From: Verrucomicrobiota bacterium | GTDB taxonomy: Bacteria > Verrucomicrobiota > Verrucomicrobiia > Limisphaerales > CANJXF01 | Reading direction: 5' to 3' | Assembly: GCA_038214755.1 (NCBI GenBank) | Contig: JBBQRQ010000093.1 | Span: forward strand, 1-19,836 | DNA length: 19,836 nucleotides | Shown here: positions 5,987 to 18,691 of the stretch, piece after piece | Layout: the number at the start of each line of letters is the position of its first letter | How positions within the stretch are numbered: position 1 is the first letter of the stretch | Program-made: the position numbers and the translations under genes | The notes under the pieces: generated by a model | Told to the model about the DNA's origin: nothing | Seen by the model: the letters and a program-made list of their open reading frames with translations, nothing else | Database searches by the model: none

Positions 5987-6097
5987 CAGGCCGGTGAGAT
6001 TGCTTAAGTTCAAATGGTTCGTCAACTTTGGAGGAAGGCGGATCGTGGGGGCCAACCGGGAAAAAATTCGTTCCTCTGTCGCGCAAGAAAATCTGAA

Positions 6098-6334
6098 ATG
6101 AGTTCGCGGCATCAAAACGAAACTAAATTTGGTCGTTGGGAGGATTTGCCCGGCGGCGGACGGTGTTATCGTCTGGACGTGACCGCGTGATTCGGTTGGC
6201 AGGCGCGTTATTTGAAAGAAGTGGATACCGATGAAACCACCGTGCGTTTCTGGCAAGAGATTTATGACGACACGGGCAAGCTAGTTGAAACTCACGAGAA
6301 ATTCCCGGTGGATAAAGGCCACCAGAAAATGTAG
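6098..6334 (+). pseudogene. Small toxin-like gene with one in-frame TGA (absent from the ORF track)
   Basis: Translates as MSSRHQNETKFGRWEDLPGGGRCYRLDVTA*FGWQARYLKEVDTDETTVRFWQEIYDDTGKLVETHEKFPVDKGHQKM. TGA is at 6188-6190, both halves share one frame, and the gene ends 9 nt before the next ATG. Confidence 0.75.
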
Positions 6335-6343
6335 GATGCAGCC

Positions 6344-6604
6344 ATGACGATCACGAAACAAACCGTTGCCGACAAAATCGCCGCGTATCTTCATCACGAG
6401 ATCACGTCGGCGCAGTTGGTGGATTGGGCGGAACGCGCCTTGATGGACGGCGAGCTTGCCGAATGCGATGCCCAGACGATTTCATCCGTCATCGCCCGCC
6501 TCGGTGTGGCGGATGTTCGCGCCTTCGGCCTTGCCTGGGACGATTGCGAGGCGCTTCTTCATCAACTCGGTTTTTCTCCGCGCGTGGAAGTGGTCGCGAT
6601 GTAA
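6344..6604 (+). CDS. Small acidic helical protein, candidate antitoxin or immunity partner of the upstream gene
   Basis: 86-aa ATG ORF with AGGA upstream. Sequence features ITKQTVADKIAAYL, LVDWAE, FGLAWDDC. Confidence 0.8.
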   Translation: MTITKQTVADKIAAYLHHEITSAQLVDWAERALMDGELAECDAQTISSVIARLGVADVRAFGLAWDDCEALLHQLGFSPRVEVVAM

Positions 6605-6673
6605 ATCGCCACGACCTTTCGCACCATCGTCGCCATGATTTCGAGCAACATTGCCCCGTCAGATTTTAAACGG

Positions 6674-6702
6674 TTGTCAAAGCGCGGCGGCGAAATTAAA
6701 TT
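6674..6702 (+). promoter_or_regulatory. Sigma70-type promoter, probably giving a leaderless mRNA for the TA operon
   Basis: TTGTCA(6674-6679)-N17-TAAATT(6697-6702), then 6 nt to ATG 6709. No Shine-Dalgarno sequence. Confidence 0.65.
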
Positions 6703-6708
6703 CCCAAC

Positions 6709-6897
6709 ATGAGCCAGGCAGAAATTATTTCTGAAATTCCCAAGCTGTCGCGCACAGCGCGGCGGGAAATAATGCGCTGCATCGTTGAATCAGAGGAAGA
6801 CGCCACGACGCTCGTTGAATGTGACCGTCTGGCGCTGGAGCGATTCCAAATGCTCGACGCCATGGAAGCCGAAGATGAAAAGAACGCTGCCCGGTGA
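6709..6897 (+). CDS. Putative type II antitoxin
   Basis: 62 aa with an acidic C-terminal half. Lies upstream of the MazF-like gene and overlaps it by 23 nt. Confidence 0.75.
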   Translation: MSQAEIISEIPKLSRTARREIMRCIVESEEDATTLVECDRLALERFQMLDAMEAEDEKNAAR

Positions 6898-7195
6898 AAT
6901 TTGGCGCGTTGATTTCGGCATGGCGGCCAAAGTCCGGCCCGCGCTCATTCTGAGCGATTTTCCCGACGACGACGAATTGGCTTTGCTGGTCGTCATTCCA
7001 CACACCACCTCCGTGCGCGGAAACCGTTGGGAACTTACCATCGCCAAACCGTTTCTAAAACCCGGCGCATTTCATCTCCAACAAATCCAACCCATTTCAC
7101 TGGCGCACTTTGATGTCCACCTCGGCGTTTTGACGCCGGAGGAATTCAAAAAAGTGAAAGCAACATTGGTTCGATTGCTGAATTTACAAGTTTGA
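6875..7195 (+). CDS. MazF/PemK family toxin (endoribonuclease)
   Basis: From ATG 6875: PGEIWRVDFG, KVRPALILS, LLVVIPHTTS, LQQIQPIS, LGVLTPEEFKKVK. 106 aa. Confidence 0.92.
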   Translation: MKRTLPGEIWRVDFGMAAKVRPALILSDFPDDDELALLVVIPHTTSVRGNRWELTIAKPFLKPGAFHLQQIQPISLAHFDVHLGVLTPEEFKKVKATLVRLLNLQV

Positions 7196-7201
7196 GCAGC
7201 G

Positions 7202-7305
7202 CGCCGTTTTCCTTAAAATTTTTCTATTCCGTTGAAGGCGAGCGCGTCATTGTCTTTCGCATTTTGCACGCGAAGCGGGAACATCAACGGCAACTGGGTG
7301 TTTGA
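7202..7305 (+). pseudogene. C-terminal remnant of a ParE/RelE family toxin
   Basis: RRF(P), then a 1-nt frameshift, then KFFYSVEGERVIVFRILHAKREHQRQLGV*. This matches the RelE/ParE C-terminal pattern (RFPYxxFY...VxVxRxLHxxR). No 5' part is present. Confidence 0.7.
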
Positions 7306-7494: not shown

Positions 7495-7500
7495 TAGAAT
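7495..7500 (+). promoter_or_regulatory. Candidate -10 box of a leaderless nurA-herA transcript
   Basis: TAGAAT lies 8 nt before ATG 7509. No SD sequence and no good -35. Confidence 0.4.
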
Positions 7501-7508
7501 CGCCGACG

Positions 7509-8588
7509 ATGCATTTCACAACGGACAGGCTGGCTCGGCTTCAGCGGAGTTTAGAACTGGCCCTCAACCAGGAGTGGCCTCAACTGTGTGCGACGCAGAA
7601 GAAGCTAACGCCGCATCGCCCAAAACCAATCCGCGCCTGCGCTGGTTTGCATCCGCTCTCCGTGATTGCTACGGTGGCGACTGACGGTGGGGAAAACCGG
7701 TTGAGCTTGGAGCCGATTCGATTACAGGTCGTGCGCGTGGCCGACAGCCTCGGTGAAATCTACTTTGAGGAATTCATCGCGCAGTCGCTGAAGCCGGAGG
7801 AAATCGTACGGTTCTTTTTCCAGTCGAATGAGCGGTTGCAACGGTTTGTCGCTTACCTCCAATTGGACTGGCAACAATTGCTGCCGCAGTCGGATTTTCA
7901 GCGGAGTCATTTGCTGTCCATGCTGCGCGAGTTGATGGAATGGGCGGCGCTCTTGAAATTGGCCAGCCAGCCGCCGGCCAAGCTCTTGATTCGCGACGGG
8001 CTTCTGCGCAGCGTGATGCTGACGGACCTGGTCTTTCAGCGGATCGGAGAGAAGTTTGAATTGCTGACGGCGAAGCACGGTCATTTGTTGGTAGGCGTGG
8101 CCAAGCGATCGCGTGTGCTCAACTACCTGTCGGTCGCGCTCGGATTGAACGAAAGCTTCGCCAGTGGCGAGCCGGCGTATCTCTCCATCCCAGCCGAACT
8201 GGAGCGCGAGGCTGCGCCGGCGCAGTATCGTTGGATCGGCAGCCGGGCCTTGGGTTGCTTGCACATCGCCCGGCTGGACCGCGGCGAGAATGTGCCGCTG
8301 TTGCCGGTGGACGTCGCGGTCTGGCAGCGCGACCGCGTGGACGAAGCTATGTCGTTGCTGCACGACTCCGGGCGCGGGAGTTTTCCGATACGCGGCTATC
8401 CGCAAGCTCTCATCCAAGCACACGAGCACGCCCGGCTCGGCGGACTGGAAGTCGAGATGCTTGAAAAAATGTTGTTGGAGCGAATCGACGAGCGCGATCC
8501 AGCCGTGGCGCGAACGGCCAGGCAATTAATGCTTTTGGGCAAGCAGTTGACCGAGGAGATTCATAGTGACCAACAAGACGCAGCCTGA
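7509..8588 (+). CDS. nurA: NurA-family nuclease (RNase H-like fold)
   Basis: NurA motif order: VATDGG (Asp), RELMEW (Glu), LLIRDGLL (Asp), LVGVAKRS, GYPQALIQAHEHARL. Adjacent to a HerA gene. Confidence 0.85.
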   Translation: MHFTTDRLARLQRSLELALNQEWPQLCATQKKLTPHRPKPIRACAGLHPLSVIATVATDGGENRLSLEPIRLQVVRVADSLGEIYFEEFIAQSLKPEEIVRFFFQSNERLQRFVAYLQLDWQQLLPQSDFQRSHLLSMLRELMEWAALLKLASQPPAKLLIRDGLLRSVMLTDLVFQRIGEKFELLTAKHGHLLVGVAKRSRVLNYLSVALGLNESFASGEPAYLSIPAELEREAAPAQYRWIGSRALGCLHIARLDRGENVPLLPVDVAVWQRDRVDEAMSLLHDSGRGSFPIRGYPQALIQAHEHARLGGLEVEMLEKMLLERIDERDPAVARTARQLMLLGKQLTEEIHSDQQDAA

Positions 8589-10605
8589 TCTTTACGCAAA
8601 CACACCGGCAGTCGGTCTGCTGAAAGGCTTTTCGCCGCTGCCGCACCAGTTGGAAGTAGATGTGGTCGTGCCGCATCACGAGCGCGGCTTGCCCGGTTTC
8701 GGCGAGTTTCTGCTCGTCGAATTGAGCGCGACCGAGGCGCTCGTTGGGCGCGTCAGCCGCTATCAAGCCGCAGGCCAACTGGCGACAGATCGCGGTGATG
8801 CCTACTTGGGCGATCTGGCCAAGACTGAAGACGCCGTGCCCGCACCGCTCATGCGCCAGATGCTGCGCTACAATTTGAAAATGCAATTGCTCGGCCATCT
8901 GCAAGCGCAGTCGCGCGCGGGCAAATTCAAATTCTCCGTCGGCGAGCGCGCCTTCGCCACGCTCGGCGGCAAGGTACGGATTCCATCGGAATCAGCGCTG
9001 GCGTTTCTTTGCAACGTCGGCTTGGAAGACGATCCAACCGCCGTGCCGCTCGGACATTTGGTTTACGGCCAGCGGGAACTCAAGAATGTTCCGATTCGAT
9101 TCAGTATGGGACGACTGAAGGGCAAACGGAGTTTTGTGTTCGCACGCGCGGGTTACGGCAAAAGTAATTTAATCAAGTATCTGGTCTCGCAGCTTTATTC
9201 TTCGCCGCCGGATGTCGGCTTGTTGATCTTTGATCCGGAAGGCGAATATGCCCTGCCAGATGCACACGGGCGTCCCGGCTTGGTGGACGTGCCCGCGCTG
9301 CGAAATCGGATTTCGCTCTACACCAATCGCAAAGTTGGTGCGGCTCATGCCAGCGTGGTGAAGGGCAACGCTTTCGTGGACTTCGGCGATTTTCCGCCGC
9401 AGGACATCGTCGCTGCCTTTATTCCGCAAGAGAAGCAAGAGACCGTTTTCGCGAACCTGCTGCGCGGTCTCGAATGGAAAGCCTGGAAACAACTGGTCGA
9501 ACTACTCGCCGCGAACGGATTCACTTCCGACGACAAGAAAATCGGCGCGTTGCTTTCCTACAAACCTCGTGAGGGTGACGTCAGCATCGCCGCGATTAAA
9601 AATAATCTTGTTCCGCCAATTCGGCGGCTGCATCGGGCTGGCGCAACTCTGGGCAAGAACATCCTCGAGGAGTTGCGGCTCAATCGCGTGGTGATCGTTG
9701 ACATCTCTCTGCTGGGAGGCGAGGACGGTCTGGCCACCACGGGAATGCTGATGCGGCGCATCTTTCACCACAACGTTCGGCATCTGACTGACGTAGCGGG
9801 ACCGACGGTTCGCTGCCTTGCGGTTTTGGAAGAGGCGCAGACCATGCTGGGCGACCGCGTGCTGGACGACCGAAACGTGTTTGTGCGTTGGGTGAAGGAA
9901 GGGCGCAAGTATGGGCTGGGGTGCATCCTCGTCACCCAACAGCCGAGTTCCATTTCCAGTCAGATTATCAGCCAAGGCGACAATTTCTTCGCATTGCACC
10001 TGCTCAACGAAAGCGATCTGCAAACCCTCAAGAAGCACAATGCCTATTTCAGCGACGAGATTCTGGGCTTCCTCCGCAGCGAACCGATTCCAGGCAATTG
10101 CTACTTCTGGAGCGCGCCCAGCCAGCCCTTTGTCCTGCCAGCGCGCGTCTGCAATTTCGAAAGCGTTTGTCAGTCATCTTCTCAACCGGCTACCGAGGCG
10201 GCCGTGACGCCGCCCGATGCGAAACGGCTCACTGAACTCACGGCCAAAACCGTAAAGGAAACGCTGACGGCTTACGAGCGATTGTGGCTCTACCGGGTCC
10301 GCAGTGAGCGCGGGAAAAAAGACAGCGGGTGGGTGGCCTTCAGCACGGACTATCTCCAAAACATCGTGGCGCAGAAAATCGCGGAGAATCCGTCGTTTAA
10401 GCTAATGCCCGACGGCCTGCGCTGGCTTCAGACCCGGCTACCAGTCGAAATCGAAGCAGTATTGACTCGCCACAAGGCGCGTTCTGGCTATGCCGTAATC
10501 GAAGGCGTAACGCGTGCGGTGTGGGTGTTGCCTCAAGTCGAAATCAAACTGGACAAAGGCAAAACGTTTCGCTCGCCGACGGTTGAGGTAAAGGAGAGGA
10601 TTTAA
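8566..10605 (+). CDS. herA: HerA/FtsK-superfamily (DUF87-type) ATPase with an extra C-terminal domain
   Basis: GTG start with SD GAGGAG and a 23-nt overlap with nurA. HAS-barrel-like N-terminus (FGEFLLVE...LVGRV), Walker A ARAGYGKS, IFDPEGEY, Walker B AVLEEAQ, Arg finger KEGRKYG, ILVTQQPS. Confidence 0.9.
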   Translation: MTNKTQPDLYANTPAVGLLKGFSPLPHQLEVDVVVPHHERGLPGFGEFLLVELSATEALVGRVSRYQAAGQLATDRGDAYLGDLAKTEDAVPAPLMRQMLRYNLKMQLLGHLQAQSRAGKFKFSVGERAFATLGGKVRIPSESALAFLCNVGLEDDPTAVPLGHLVYGQRELKNVPIRFSMGRLKGKRSFVFARAGYGKSNLIKYLVSQLYSSPPDVGLLIFDPEGEYALPDAHGRPGLVDVPALRNRISLYTNRKVGAAHASVVKGNAFVDFGDFPPQDIVAAFIPQEKQETVFANLLRGLEWKAWKQLVELLAANGFTSDDKKIGALLSYKPREGDVSIAAIKNNLVPPIRRLHRAGATLGKNILEELRLNRVVIVDISLLGGEDGLATTGMLMRRIFHHNVRHLTDVAGPTVRCLAVLEEAQTMLGDRVLDDRNVFVRWVKEGRKYGLGCILVTQQPSSISSQIISQGDNFFALHLLNESDLQTLKKHNAYFSDEILGFLRSEPIPGNCYFWSAPSQPFVLPARVCNFESVCQSSSQPATEAAVTPPDAKRLTELTAKTVKETLTAYERLWLYRVRSERGKKDSGWVAFSTDYLQNIVAQKIAENPSFKLMPDGLRWLQTRLPVEIEAVLTRHKARSGYAVIEGVTRAVWVLPQVEIKLDKGKTFRSPTVEVKERI

Positions 10606-10618
10606 GTCATTCGCCTGA

Positions 10619-11512
10619 TTGTGCGCGACGATGCATTCGGCTTCAGTGTCGAGCGCGTTTCTCTGTCTCAACCCAGAGTTAAGGCAGTTCCGGCAGCTTG
10701 TGACGGGCGCACGGGCGCGTTTGGCGGAATTGGAAGTCAATTACACCAAGGAGAAGTCGCCAGTGGATGCCACGCAGGCGATTCTTTTCTGGCAGTTGCG
10801 CCAGCATTACCAGAAGCGCGATCAGCTTCGACTCACGGTGGATTATCGGCGGAAGTTTTTGGATTCACTCACGCGCGGCGATTCGGAAGCAGCGAAACAG
10901 GCAGAGCAGAATTTCGAGCAGGCCAAAACGCAAACGAACAAGGATTACGAAGAACTGGCAGCAGCGGCGGACAAAAAGAAGCAACTGACCCTCGAGCAAG
11001 AAGCCGAGTTGACGTTGCTCTGGAAAAAGTTGGTGAAACTGTATCATCCCGACCGCTACGCCAACGAGCCGGACAAGCTGGAGACGTTTCAAAAACTGAC
11101 TGCCGCCATCAATCACGCGAAGGACAACGGCGACATCGAGACGTTGCGCGAAATCGCGGAAGACCCGCAAGGCTTCATCCTGCGTCAAGGCTGGGCGAAG
11201 CTGGATTTCAAGGACGTGGAAGAACTTGCGCAATTGAAGCGTCTGCATGAAACGTTGCAGCGGGAAATTGCCGTGGTCGCGGAATTCCTTTCCAGGTAGC
11301 AGCCGACGTAAGGAGGCTCTGACTTGTTCCGAGTTTGAAGTGAGCCTCCTCACGTCGGCTGCTACCATAGTTACCAGAAACCGGGCGTGTTGGATGAACT
11401 GGCAGCGGAACGGACAAAGCAGCTTGAATTAGAAAATAAGGCGTTGGAAATGCAGGCTGATCTTCTGTCAAAGGAAATCAAGAAGTTGGGCGGCACGGAA
11501 AAGTTTGTTTGA
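10619..11512 (+). pseudogene. Coiled-coil J-domain (DnaJ-like) gene interrupted by a REP-like element, 5' end uncertain
   Basis: LWKKLVKLYHPDRY...FQKLTAAINHA is a J-domain with HPD. The stop at 11297-11299 lies inside the palindrome. The same frame resumes as YQKPGVLDELAAERTKQLELENKALEMQADLLSKEIKKLGGTEKFV* to 11512. No convincing start or SD. Confidence 0.75.
11295..11366. repeat. GTAG-type REP doublet, 72 bp
   Basis: Arms GGTAGCAGCCGACGT(A/G)AGGAGGCTC, 24/25 identical inverted repeat, 22-nt spacer. Confidence 0.92.
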
Positions 11513-16822: not shown

Positions 16823-16883
16823 GACAATTGACTTGCGTCGTGGAAATCAATTTCTTAACGTCAACCCGTCAAAGACAAAACTT

Positions 16884-18191
16884 ATGAAAAATATTCGCGT
16901 ATTCATTACGGCAATAGTTCTTCTCGCCTCCGTTCATTTCACTTCCGCGATTGAGGGACTCACTCTCTCGATCCAGAGCAGCAACGTAGTTTTGACGTGG
17001 CCGAGCGTTGAAGGAGAAATGTACATCGTTGAGCATCGCTCGACGCTCGACACCAATACGACCTGGGAAATATTGACCAATTACGTTCCAGCAGCGGTCG
17101 GCACAAACAAGACGAGTTTTGTGCATTCCAATCAAGTCACGCCGCATGAAAATTTCAGCGACAGTGGTTCCGAAACGAGTGATGCGAAATACAAGAAATG
17201 GGAAGATAAGGAACCAGCGCTGCCCCCGTTACCATGGGACCAAACCACTTGGCCCACGACAACTTCCTTCAGCGTGAACGGACCTGGCCCAGATAATTGC
17301 TGCGGTGTGGAGATGGGATTTTATCTTGTTATTGGATACGGTGAAGACACAGATGGCGATGGGTTTGACAATCTCACAGAATTGGTGCTCGGCAGTGACC
17401 CTCTGGTGCGTGAGGGCGATGCAACATCTCTCACCAATGGCGGTGTTTATTCCGGAGAGGTGAACATCACGTTTACTCCTTCGAGCAACTACACCAACAT
17501 TCTTGGACCGATGTTGTATGCCGATGGCGTGTTGGCCAATAGTCTTATAACGACAGAGCCATCTTCTGGAAATCTTCGGCTCCAATGGCACAGCGTGTTC
17601 GTTCACACCGCCAGCAGTTCGTCGCTTATGACAACGGAGGGACCTGGTCCGACTCCGCCGACTGTGAATTTCACAAAAGAGGAAAGCGACTTGTTAGCGG
17701 ACGCTTTTGGGCCAGGCACTAAAACGGCGGAGAACATCATCAGCAAACCAAACCAGGCGAAAGTTGATCTGTTGCCGCGAGAGTTGTTGGAGAGGTACGA
17801 ACAATTTGCCGCAGCATCAGTAAAAGAGACTTTCCAACTTATTCAAAAAGCAAATAAAGGCACATACGTTCCCGCTGGCGGACTGGAAAATTTTATGCGC
17901 GCGCGCATTGCTTTCGTTCACACTCAATTTACAAGGATGCAAGTCATCACTAGCTCGCTCTCTCGCCGGTTCGGTCGCGCGGTCAATCGCGTCTTACCTT
18001 TTCTCGGCGGAATTATTATTCTCGCAAACGCAGATAACATATCGGCAAATTTTCTCAGCGCGATGAATGCCTATGCCCGCGATATTGCCAGGGGAGAAGA
18101 CGAAACGGGCGACGCCGCGATTTTGGCCGGATATTGCAATGATCTCGCGCCTGGTTCCGGTAATATCGTTCTCAATTATCTTCTGCGATGA
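16884..18191 (+). CDS. Secreted modular hypothetical protein, candidate polymorphic toxin
   Basis: Signal peptide MKNIRVFITAIVLLASVHFTSA, beta-rich domain (VVLTWPS...YIVEHRSTL...W), Ca-binding-like DTDGDGFDNLTELVLGSDP, Ig-like segment, linker TTEGPGPTPPT, helical C-terminal domain with hydrophobic VLPFLGGIIILANA. Confidence 0.8.
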   Translation: MKNIRVFITAIVLLASVHFTSAIEGLTLSIQSSNVVLTWPSVEGEMYIVEHRSTLDTNTTWEILTNYVPAAVGTNKTSFVHSNQVTPHENFSDSGSETSDAKYKKWEDKEPALPPLPWDQTTWPTTTSFSVNGPGPDNCCGVEMGFYLVIGYGEDTDGDGFDNLTELVLGSDPLVREGDATSLTNGGVYSGEVNITFTPSSNYTNILGPMLYADGVLANSLITTEPSSGNLRLQWHSVFVHTASSSSLMTTEGPGPTPPTVNFTKEESDLLADAFGPGTKTAENIISKPNQAKVDLLPRELLERYEQFAAASVKETFQLIQKANKGTYVPAGGLENFMRARIAFVHTQFTRMQVITSSLSRRFGRAVNRVLPFLGGIIILANADNISANFLSAMNAYARDIARGEDETGDAAILAGYCNDLAPGSGNIVLNYLLR

Positions 18192-18691
18192 AATATCCTG
18201 CCTTTATAATTTTTCAGGACGCGCGTCTATTCCAAGCCAGCTATTTGGAACAAACCGGCGATATCGAAGTGTTTGCCTTTCGAGGACGGGAATATCGTTT
18301 TGCCGGGCAGTGTCCGTTCTACCATCATTTAACTGACGCGGAGAAACGGCTCATCGGCTTCGTCTTAGACGGCGCGAACAATATTACAAAAGCTCTGGGC
18401 TGGTTTGAATGGATCAAGGCTGGAGAAAACAAATTTTTTGATGAGTCTTTCGAGATTTATTTTTATCTCAAGTGGCCCCAGCCGATACAATGGGATCACG
18501 ACGGTTCCACAATGATTGCCGCCAATGTGTACCACGATGGGCAAGGAGATTTTCTCATCACCATCGACGATACCAAAGCTACTGGCAGAGATGGTCAGTT
18601 TCAAAATCTCTGGAGCAGTATTACTTTCCCGCTGGCGCCTGCCGATCAGTTTCAAGTCATCAAATGCTTCCCGGCGTTTCAGAAATCCTAA
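18188..18691 (+). CDS. Hypothetical cytoplasmic protein, candidate immunity protein
   Basis: 167 aa. ATGA overlap with the upstream stop. Aromatic- and acid-rich, with no signal peptide. Confidence 0.75.
   Translation: MKYPAFIIFQDARLFQASYLEQTGDIEVFAFRGREYRFAGQCPFYHHLTDAEKRLIGFVLDGANNITKALGWFEWIKAGENKFFDESFEIYFYLKWPQPIQWDHDGSTMIAANVYHDGQGDFLITIDDTKATGRDGQFQNLWSSITFPLAPADQFQVIKCFPAFQKS

Follow-up and report, generated by a model that had tools for sequence, protein, structure and literature searches.

A NurA-HerA gene pair without an adjacent writer in a Verrucomicrobiota bacterium: a distant relative of TdpAB and candidate destroyer of foreign linear DNA

Introduction

TdpAB, the nuclease and motor of the TdpABC system, is reported to destroy unmarked phage DNA, and in the TdpABC study of An et al. 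in 2025 it is said to need a phosphorothioate (PT) mark to spare self and avoid autoimmunity. Here we compare TdpAB and other HerA-based systems with an overlapping nurA-herA gene pair, predicted to encode a nuclease and a DNA translocase, that lies in a 19,836-nt stretch of the Verrucomicrobiota bacterium GCA_038214755.1 (contig JBBQRQ010000093.1; genome 97% complete). This whole stretch is referred to below as the window. The available text of PMC12914056 attributes the PT mark to tdpC alone, and that of PMC13223576 lists TdpABC as a PT-based restriction-modification (R-M) defence.

The same two folds occur in the NurA-HerA pair of Deinococcus radiodurans (PDB 7f6d) and in archaeal HerA-NurA, which is found with Mre11-Rad50 (PDB 2ygk, 4d2i, 9x1l), and these pairs presumably have a 6:2 end-loading architecture in common with that of the window. 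As far as the available text of PMC12977600 goes, archaeal NurA lacks endonuclease activity on circular double-stranded DNA, the complex digests both strands from the ends, and destruction of foreign blunt-ended DNA by HerA-NurA has been proposed as a defence. In the anti-phage systems Sir2-HerA (Nezha) and DUF4297-HerA a HerA motor is coupled to an effector, as it is in the window pair, where the effector is NurA.

Relation of the window pair to described systems

On sequence and modelled structure, the closest studied relative of both window proteins is TdpAB (PDB 8wet, 8wfd, 8y1k; An et al. 2025, Nat Chem Biol 21:1160, PMID 39820821), to which they are distantly homologous. The best PDB match of HerA was TdpA (E 6e-33), followed by a match at 1.6e-14 and by archaeal HerA at 5e-9 to 1e-7; Deinococcus HerA (7f6d) was not among the 11 matches at E≤1. 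NurA as a single sequence matched nothing significantly in the PDB. A profile of 36 NurA sequences matched TdpB with an E value of 4.5e-16, against 0.11 for archaeal (Sulfolobus) NurA, and hhalign paired NurA with TdpB at 98.0% with 24% identity. Moreover, the AlphaFold model of NurA (predicted local distance difference test, pLDDT, 88) had TdpB as its best Foldseek match (E 9.8e-12; template modelling (TM) score 0.67), with TM scores of 0.48 for Sulfolobus NurA and 0.32 for Deinococcus NurA.

One of the loci that we recovered (L183) is itself a TdpABC locus, since its NurA-like protein is identical to TdpB of the PDB (8wet_G); its gene order is a PAPS-reductase/DndC-like tdpC, then tdpB, then tdpA. 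The window has the same order of nuclease then motor, the same catalytic motifs, a TdpA-like motor and a TdpB-like NurA directly upstream of it. However, the window HerA is only 31% identical (448 columns) to TdpA of L183 and NurA only ~20-24% identical to TdpB, a long branch separates them, Walker A reads ARAGYGKS rather than GKTG[FY]GKS as in TdpA, and the window HerA has an extra tail of ~135 residues. No tdpC lies in the window, and a hidden Markov model of five TdpC sequences gave a single 45-residue match (E 0.026) in the 97%-complete genome. Therefore, given the lack of tdpC, the extra tail and the ~30% identity, we do not regard the pair as a member of TdpABC.

The other described systems are further removed. 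Similarity to the Deinococcus and archaeal pairs is much weaker, and these differ from the patchily distributed window pair in being core genes or in standing with mre11/rad50. A Deinococcus-type NurA-HerA is ruled out, as 7f6d HerA was unmatched at E≤1 and its true ortholog L215, which scores 1057 bits, falls outside the family in the HerA tree; the comparison with repair-type HerA proposed in the original prediction favours TdpA as closest studied relative. The archaeal herA-nurA-mre11-rad50 operon was rejected because neither mre11 nor rad50 is present in the window or recurs as a neighbour among the 79 loci described below. The window HerA scores far below the cut-offs of the NCBIfam models for both repair-type and anti-phage HerA. 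Matches of the Sir2-HerA and DUF4297-HerA type were weak (up to 79.5 bits in PADLOC; 57.9 bits for NF042943 against an NCBIfam cut-off of 800), and with NurA as the partner, membership of either system was discarded.

An intact pair under purifying selection

The original prediction had described intact, overlapping nurA and herA genes with catalytic motifs and without mre11/rad50 neighbours, and all of this stands (Table 1). Both open reading frames (ORFs) are intact and overlap by 23 nt, with Pfam matches of NurA to PF09376 (E 1.9e-7; 31.3 bits, cut-off 21) and of HerA to PF01935 (DUF87; E 1e-16). NurA retains the catalytic residues D59 (DGG), E144, D163 (RDG), K199 and H305; in an alignment of 36 homologs E144, K199 and H305 never vary and D59 hardly does. 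HerA retains Walker A ARAGYGKS (193-200; K199), Walker B LEEAQ (421-425; E422-E423) and KEGRKYG (R447). The ratio of nonsynonymous to synonymous substitution (dN/dS) against four relatives was 0.065-0.098 for NurA and 0.041-0.105 for the HerA core, and both genes are under strong purifying selection. The window contains neither mre11 nor rad50, and the genome, at 97% completeness, has no match to the SbcD model TIGR00619. The HerA motifs had also been called variant; among the 38 HerAs of clade A, 35 have ARAGYGKS and 37 have EEAQ, and among the 77 of clade B these numbers are at least 55 and 76, respectively, so that they are the norm of both clades (defined below) and carry no special meaning.

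Table 1. Features of the window, with positions counted from its first nucleotide.
Feature	Position	Strand	Support
nurA, tdpB-like nuclease (359 aa, RNase H-like fold)	7509..8588	+	Pfam, profile, hhalign, AlphaFold/Foldseek, dN/dS
herA, tdpA-like ring ATPase DNA translocase (679 aa, GTG start)	8566..10605	+	Pfam DUF87, PDB match, dN/dS
HerA C-terminal domain (~135 residues)	10201..10602	+	common to clades A and B, not in TdpA; faster evolving
-10-like hexamer TAGAAT, 8 nt 5′ of the nurA ATG	7495..7500	+	predicted promoter, left edge of mobile unit
MazF/PemK toxin	6875-7195		Pfam E 3e-9

Two sister clades, with and without writers

From the 475 relatives found in a scan of GTDB genomes we retained the best 80, which make up 79 loci, and the best 80 of 486 relatives from a metagenome scan were added. 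After dereplication at 97%, 119 of 140 rows stayed for the HerA tree (FastTree), 115 of which form the family; the NurA tree (IQ-TREE) was built from 39 selected NurAs. HerA is preceded by NurA in 72 of the 79 genome loci, and six of the other seven begin at a contig edge. The one true exception is L023, where the 4.8 kb upstream of a clade A HerA gave no NurA match. In two loci, L002 (47-2278) and L112 (6165-8396), NurA is part of a 744-aa ORF, with ~400 further residues fused to its N-terminus; in L112 this ORF has a transposase upstream.

The HerA tree divides into clade A (38 rows, support 96), which includes the window, and clade B (77 rows, support 99), with TdpA outside both on a long branch; the root hangs on long outgroup branches. 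The NurA tree shows the same split (support 96 and 98). Named rows of clade A are Verrucomicrobiota and Planctomycetota with the exception of one alphaproteobacterium, making it mainly a clade of the Planctomycetes-Verrucomicrobia-Chlamydiae (PVC) group, whereas clade B spans many phyla and some archaea. Clade B NurAs are ~25-36% and HerAs 35-42% identical to those of the window, with the same motifs and tail.

The clades differ in the presence of a candidate writer, that is, a gene for a DNA-modifying enzyme. The sole other recurring neighbour among the 79 loci is DruA (PF14236/DUF4338), found upstream or downstream in 39 of them, and a smaller set has an SPPY-motif methyltransferase in its place. 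Three DruA copies tested match the PADLOC DruA1 model over most of their length. In clade B, 58 of 77 rows have one of these genes adjacent (DruA 54, methyltransferase 4), 14 have neither and five end at a contig edge. In contrast, none of the 38 clade A rows has an adjacent DruA, TdpC or SPPY methyltransferase (both sides are visible for ≥1.5 kb in 18 rows, and the other 20 are near edges), nor does any other neighbour recur across divergent clade A loci. Membership of the clade B DruA-NurA-HerA and methyltransferase-NurA-HerA cassettes is therefore excluded for the window pair, which has no adjacent DruA or SPPY methyltransferase. Single neighbours such as an SMC-like ATPase upstream in L142 (clade B) and a metallophosphoesterase in L016 do not recur.

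The DruA model (pLDDT 87) has a GNAT fold. Its top VIA-align match was Mom of phage Mu (Z 9.7, root-mean-square deviation 3.6, 165 aligned), nearly tied with other GNATs (9.6, 9.2, 9.1 and 9.0), and Foldseek returned no match at E≤0.001. Mom is described in the available text of PMC13219725 as a DNA-modifying GNAT, and on its model DruA is thus a candidate DNA writer folding like Mom.

We also sought writers encoded elsewhere in the genome. DruA has no match at E≤1 in the window's own genome, and DruA-type genes occur in 10 of 301 genomes of the order, none of them among the 11 that are NurA-positive. The host methyltransferase closest to the partner methyltransferase, on contig C9, occurs in 156 of the 301 genomes and in only four of the ten clade A-type positives. 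Thus, of DruA, TdpC and the C9 methyltransferase, none shows a link in trans to clade A. These tallies, like those for congeners and order genomes below, take in genome G009, and no claim depends on G009 alone.

The HerA tail is common to both clades, whose tail profiles align at 96.6% in hhalign. The residues after the EGRK motif have a median of 235-241 in clades A and B and of 100 in TdpA. The tail evolves faster than the core (dN/dS 0.136-0.179) and has no usable match in Atlas, PDB or Pfam; it was not modelled, so this has no bearing on its fold. We regard the C-terminal domain as a candidate sensor or specificity domain.

Our literature searches turned up no account of the family or of its DruA and methyltransferase cassettes; the homolog survey and supplements of the TdpABC paper, which may cover the family, lie outside these searches. 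A term search of the available text of 10.1101/2025.09.15.676423 and 10.64898/2026.05.12.722862 found no mention of DruA, NurA or HerA, and PMC10855626, in its available part, names NurA-HerA only in a reference.

Several related arrangements were seen. A herA-nurA-methyltransferase cassette of reverse gene order, with a NurA of 449-482 aa, lies outside both clades (L220:1253-5905, L223:4592-9551, L224:3497-8489). In the order of the window, DruA occurs without NurA-HerA in L229-L233, each time followed by a ~400-aa ORF, and may there belong to type I Druantia. Genes for ~1700-aa DEAD/MZB (YprA/DruE-like) helicases lie near some DruA-NurA-HerA cassettes (L031:13277-18457, L064:12085-17166, L066:14260-19428). 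The C9 gene (G000:C9:66928-68247; L225:7929-9245) is an orphan DNA-methyltransferase-like gene by uvrA-like genes, with high identity across the 156 genomes.

Distribution and mobility

HerA was not found in any of the eight congeners (62-97% complete), and the genomes of 40 relatives gave one weak, unrelated HerA match only. The NurA profile was found in 11 of 301 order genomes including the window's own (~4%), one of which (G276) has a clade B methyltransferase cassette. Across the phylum it was found in three of 401 genomes, the own genome again included, and the two others are methyltransferase cassettes. Homologs, whose patchiness the original prediction proposed to score, are thus patchy. 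No HerA match was found among PLSDB plasmids at E≤1e-15.

DNA homology to loci L001 and L017 (80-82%, blastn) begins at 7495/7494 and does not extend past the herA stop, at which or just before which it ends, and the flanks are unrelated. Inspection by eye of 43 upstream regions showed a similar hexamer ~8-11 nt 5′ of the start at many close clade A loci, and TAGAAT is probably the pair's own promoter with a very short leader. Since homology is confined to the stretch from the -10 hexamer to the herA stop, the mobile unit of clade A is promoter plus two genes and moves horizontally as such. No clean empty site can be defined in congener G001, since the TolC and radical SAM genes that flank the pair lie 76 kb from each other there. 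Three LexA-box motifs were found in none of the 43 upstream regions at ≤1 mismatch.

Surroundings of the pair

The original prediction placed the pair in a toxin-antitoxin (TA) hotspot next to a J-domain gene. A MazF/PemK toxin and a J-domain ORF are indeed present, yet the latter appears to be a remnant and the debris is only local. The J-domain ORF scores 23.9 bits for DnaJ, below the Pfam cut-off of 27.8, and had no match among PLSDB plasmids. It is interrupted by a palindromic repeat (11296-11365, 22-base arms) that supplies its stop, and whose arms number ~249 in the own genome at ≤2 mismatches; a fragment of the gene without the insert lies at C1:96294-96825. It thus appears to be a 5′-truncated remnant cut by the repeat and not part of the unit. 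Small-ORF and TA pieces of 6072-7295 (an 86-aa ORF twice, a RelE-like tail by eye) recur with J-domain fragments at G000:C1:94700-101300 at 80-95% identity, a second debris hotspot in the genome, one without nurA-herA. Because these pieces recur there without the pair, the TA hotspot of the window is a local matter. The J-domain ORF and TA genes were rejected as components of the system, as they are not recurring neighbours, lie outside the limits of homology and recur in pieces on C1 without the pair.

Two further observations concern the window alone. A 62-aa ORF overlaps the MazF/PemK-like toxin (6709-7195; toxin start likely 6875), and together they are probably an intact type II TA pair. 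At 16833-18691, a coupled 167-aa ORF follows the gene for a 452-aa protein that looks secreted and whose C-terminus is divergent (weak STM2901 match), an arrangement that resembles a polymorphic toxin-immunity pair.

Discussion

We propose, with about an even chance of being right, that the window pair is an end-loading destroyer of foreign linear DNA from a writer-free branch of the TdpAB lineage. By analogy with its relatives, a HerA hexamer and a NurA dimer would form a 6:2 complex whose HerA ring would most likely be loaded at a free end of double-stranded DNA. HerA would then pump the duplex with ATP into the channel of NurA, which would degrade it processively, so that linear incoming DNA such as injected phage genomes or broken or restricted foreign DNA would be destroyed. 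The main reason for self to be spared would be that a circular chromosome has no ends, while accidental breaks would be claimed by host AddAB/RecA (AddA- and AddB-like genes lie on contig C72); the HerA C-terminal domain may add further gating. It is from such comparisons that we infer, for the window pair itself, that a complex forms, what its substrate is, that it acts in defence and how it tells self from non-self.

Several points weigh against this proposal. Clade A is only weakly linked to defence islands, whereas clade B sits in them, so the island association that the original prediction called for came out poorly. We compared the nearest three ORFs per side with PADLOC at 25 clade A and 23 DruA loci (writer-less clade B loci falling outside this comparison), using our own ORF calls without ORFs of >1500 aa and discounting by judgement generic matches (radical SAM, ClpX, ABC, IstB, TPR). 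A plausible defence neighbour was found at five of the 25 clade A loci (L006, L007, L010, L014, L132) and at 15 of the 23 DruA loci (Fisher p 0.003, a value that is overstated because some loci are near-copies and thus not independent). Clade A neighbours are mostly housekeeping genes, and distinct matches on viral contigs are all of clade B types. PADLOC has no model for the window NurA and only weak, generic matches for HerA. Lastly, circularity alone may not protect self, because TdpAB reportedly needs the PT mark.

The main alternative, which we hold to be unlikely, is that clade A lost its writer and was domesticated as an accessory repair or recombination enzyme, used for optional end-processing of double-strand breaks as in Deinococcus. 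This would suit a long-lived writer-less clade (38 rows, support 96 in both trees) that is under strong purifying selection in mostly housekeeping neighbourhoods, in a host where SbcD was not found. However, the pair was found in only ~4% of order genomes and none of the eight congeners, its host already has AddAB, no LexA-type box was found, and no repair gene recurs among the neighbours. Moreover, Deinococcus HerA was unmatched at E≤1, and Deinococcus NurA resembles the NurA model far less than TdpB does. The view of the original prediction that this is not a housekeeping repair pair is therefore upheld, since the pair is patchy, its homology to relatives does not reach past its own promoter and stop codon, its host has AddAB and its nearest relative is anti-phage.

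It is more doubtful still that the pair is a restriction machine that reads modifications and whose cue has no gene alongside, with either an unlinked host mark protecting self or a type IV-like tail licensing attack on modified phage DNA. The candidate writers that accompany relatives are indeed of three different chemistries, namely TdpC (DndC-like), DruA (GNAT, top match Mom) and the SPPY methyltransferase, and the tail evolves faster than the HerA core. Yet DruA-type genes and NurA do not coincide in any of the 301 order genomes, a TdpC-like gene was not found in the own genome, the widespread C9-type methyltransferase accompanies fewer than half of the clade A-type positives, and the tail has no recognised reader fold. 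We consider it highly improbable that the pair is a decaying leftover of a three-gene cassette without current function. The spot is rich in debris (TA fragments and the J-domain remnant), and five clade A copies (L009, L015, L019, L109, L131) are split into two ORFs, possibly through assembly errors; against this, dN/dS is 0.04-0.10, catalytic residues are intact and the writer-less state is common to a whole deep clade.

The pair had been put forward as a candidate for an undescribed system. A defensive NurA-HerA pair is not a new idea, because the nearest relative is the named system TdpAB; the window pair nevertheless falls outside Tdp membership, and what is new here is a stable writer-free sister clade of the writer-carrying clade B. 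Tentatively, and as something we would sooner doubt than assert, we hypothesise that motor-nucleases of the TdpAB type are a modular platform for restriction, used with at least three writer chemistries (phosphorothioate, methyl and a Mom-like GNAT, DruA). Clade A would be its stable anti-phage form without a writer, which would have no mark of its own and would recognise self through DNA ends or through a C-terminal sensor.

If this is true, clade A would in effect be a two-gene RecBCD-like or type IV-like defence. The writer-carrying and writer-free sister clades are a natural experiment on how end-loading nucleases spare their own chromosome. The pair is compact (two genes, 3.1 kb) and easily tested. 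It bears on whether HerA-NurA pairs serve repair or defence, which, according to the available text of PMC12977600, is still argued for the archaeal enzyme. The context of the family also suggests that DruA of Druantia modifies DNA as a Mom-like enzyme. Should clade A turn out to act in repair alone, it would exemplify the domestication of a defence-type module.

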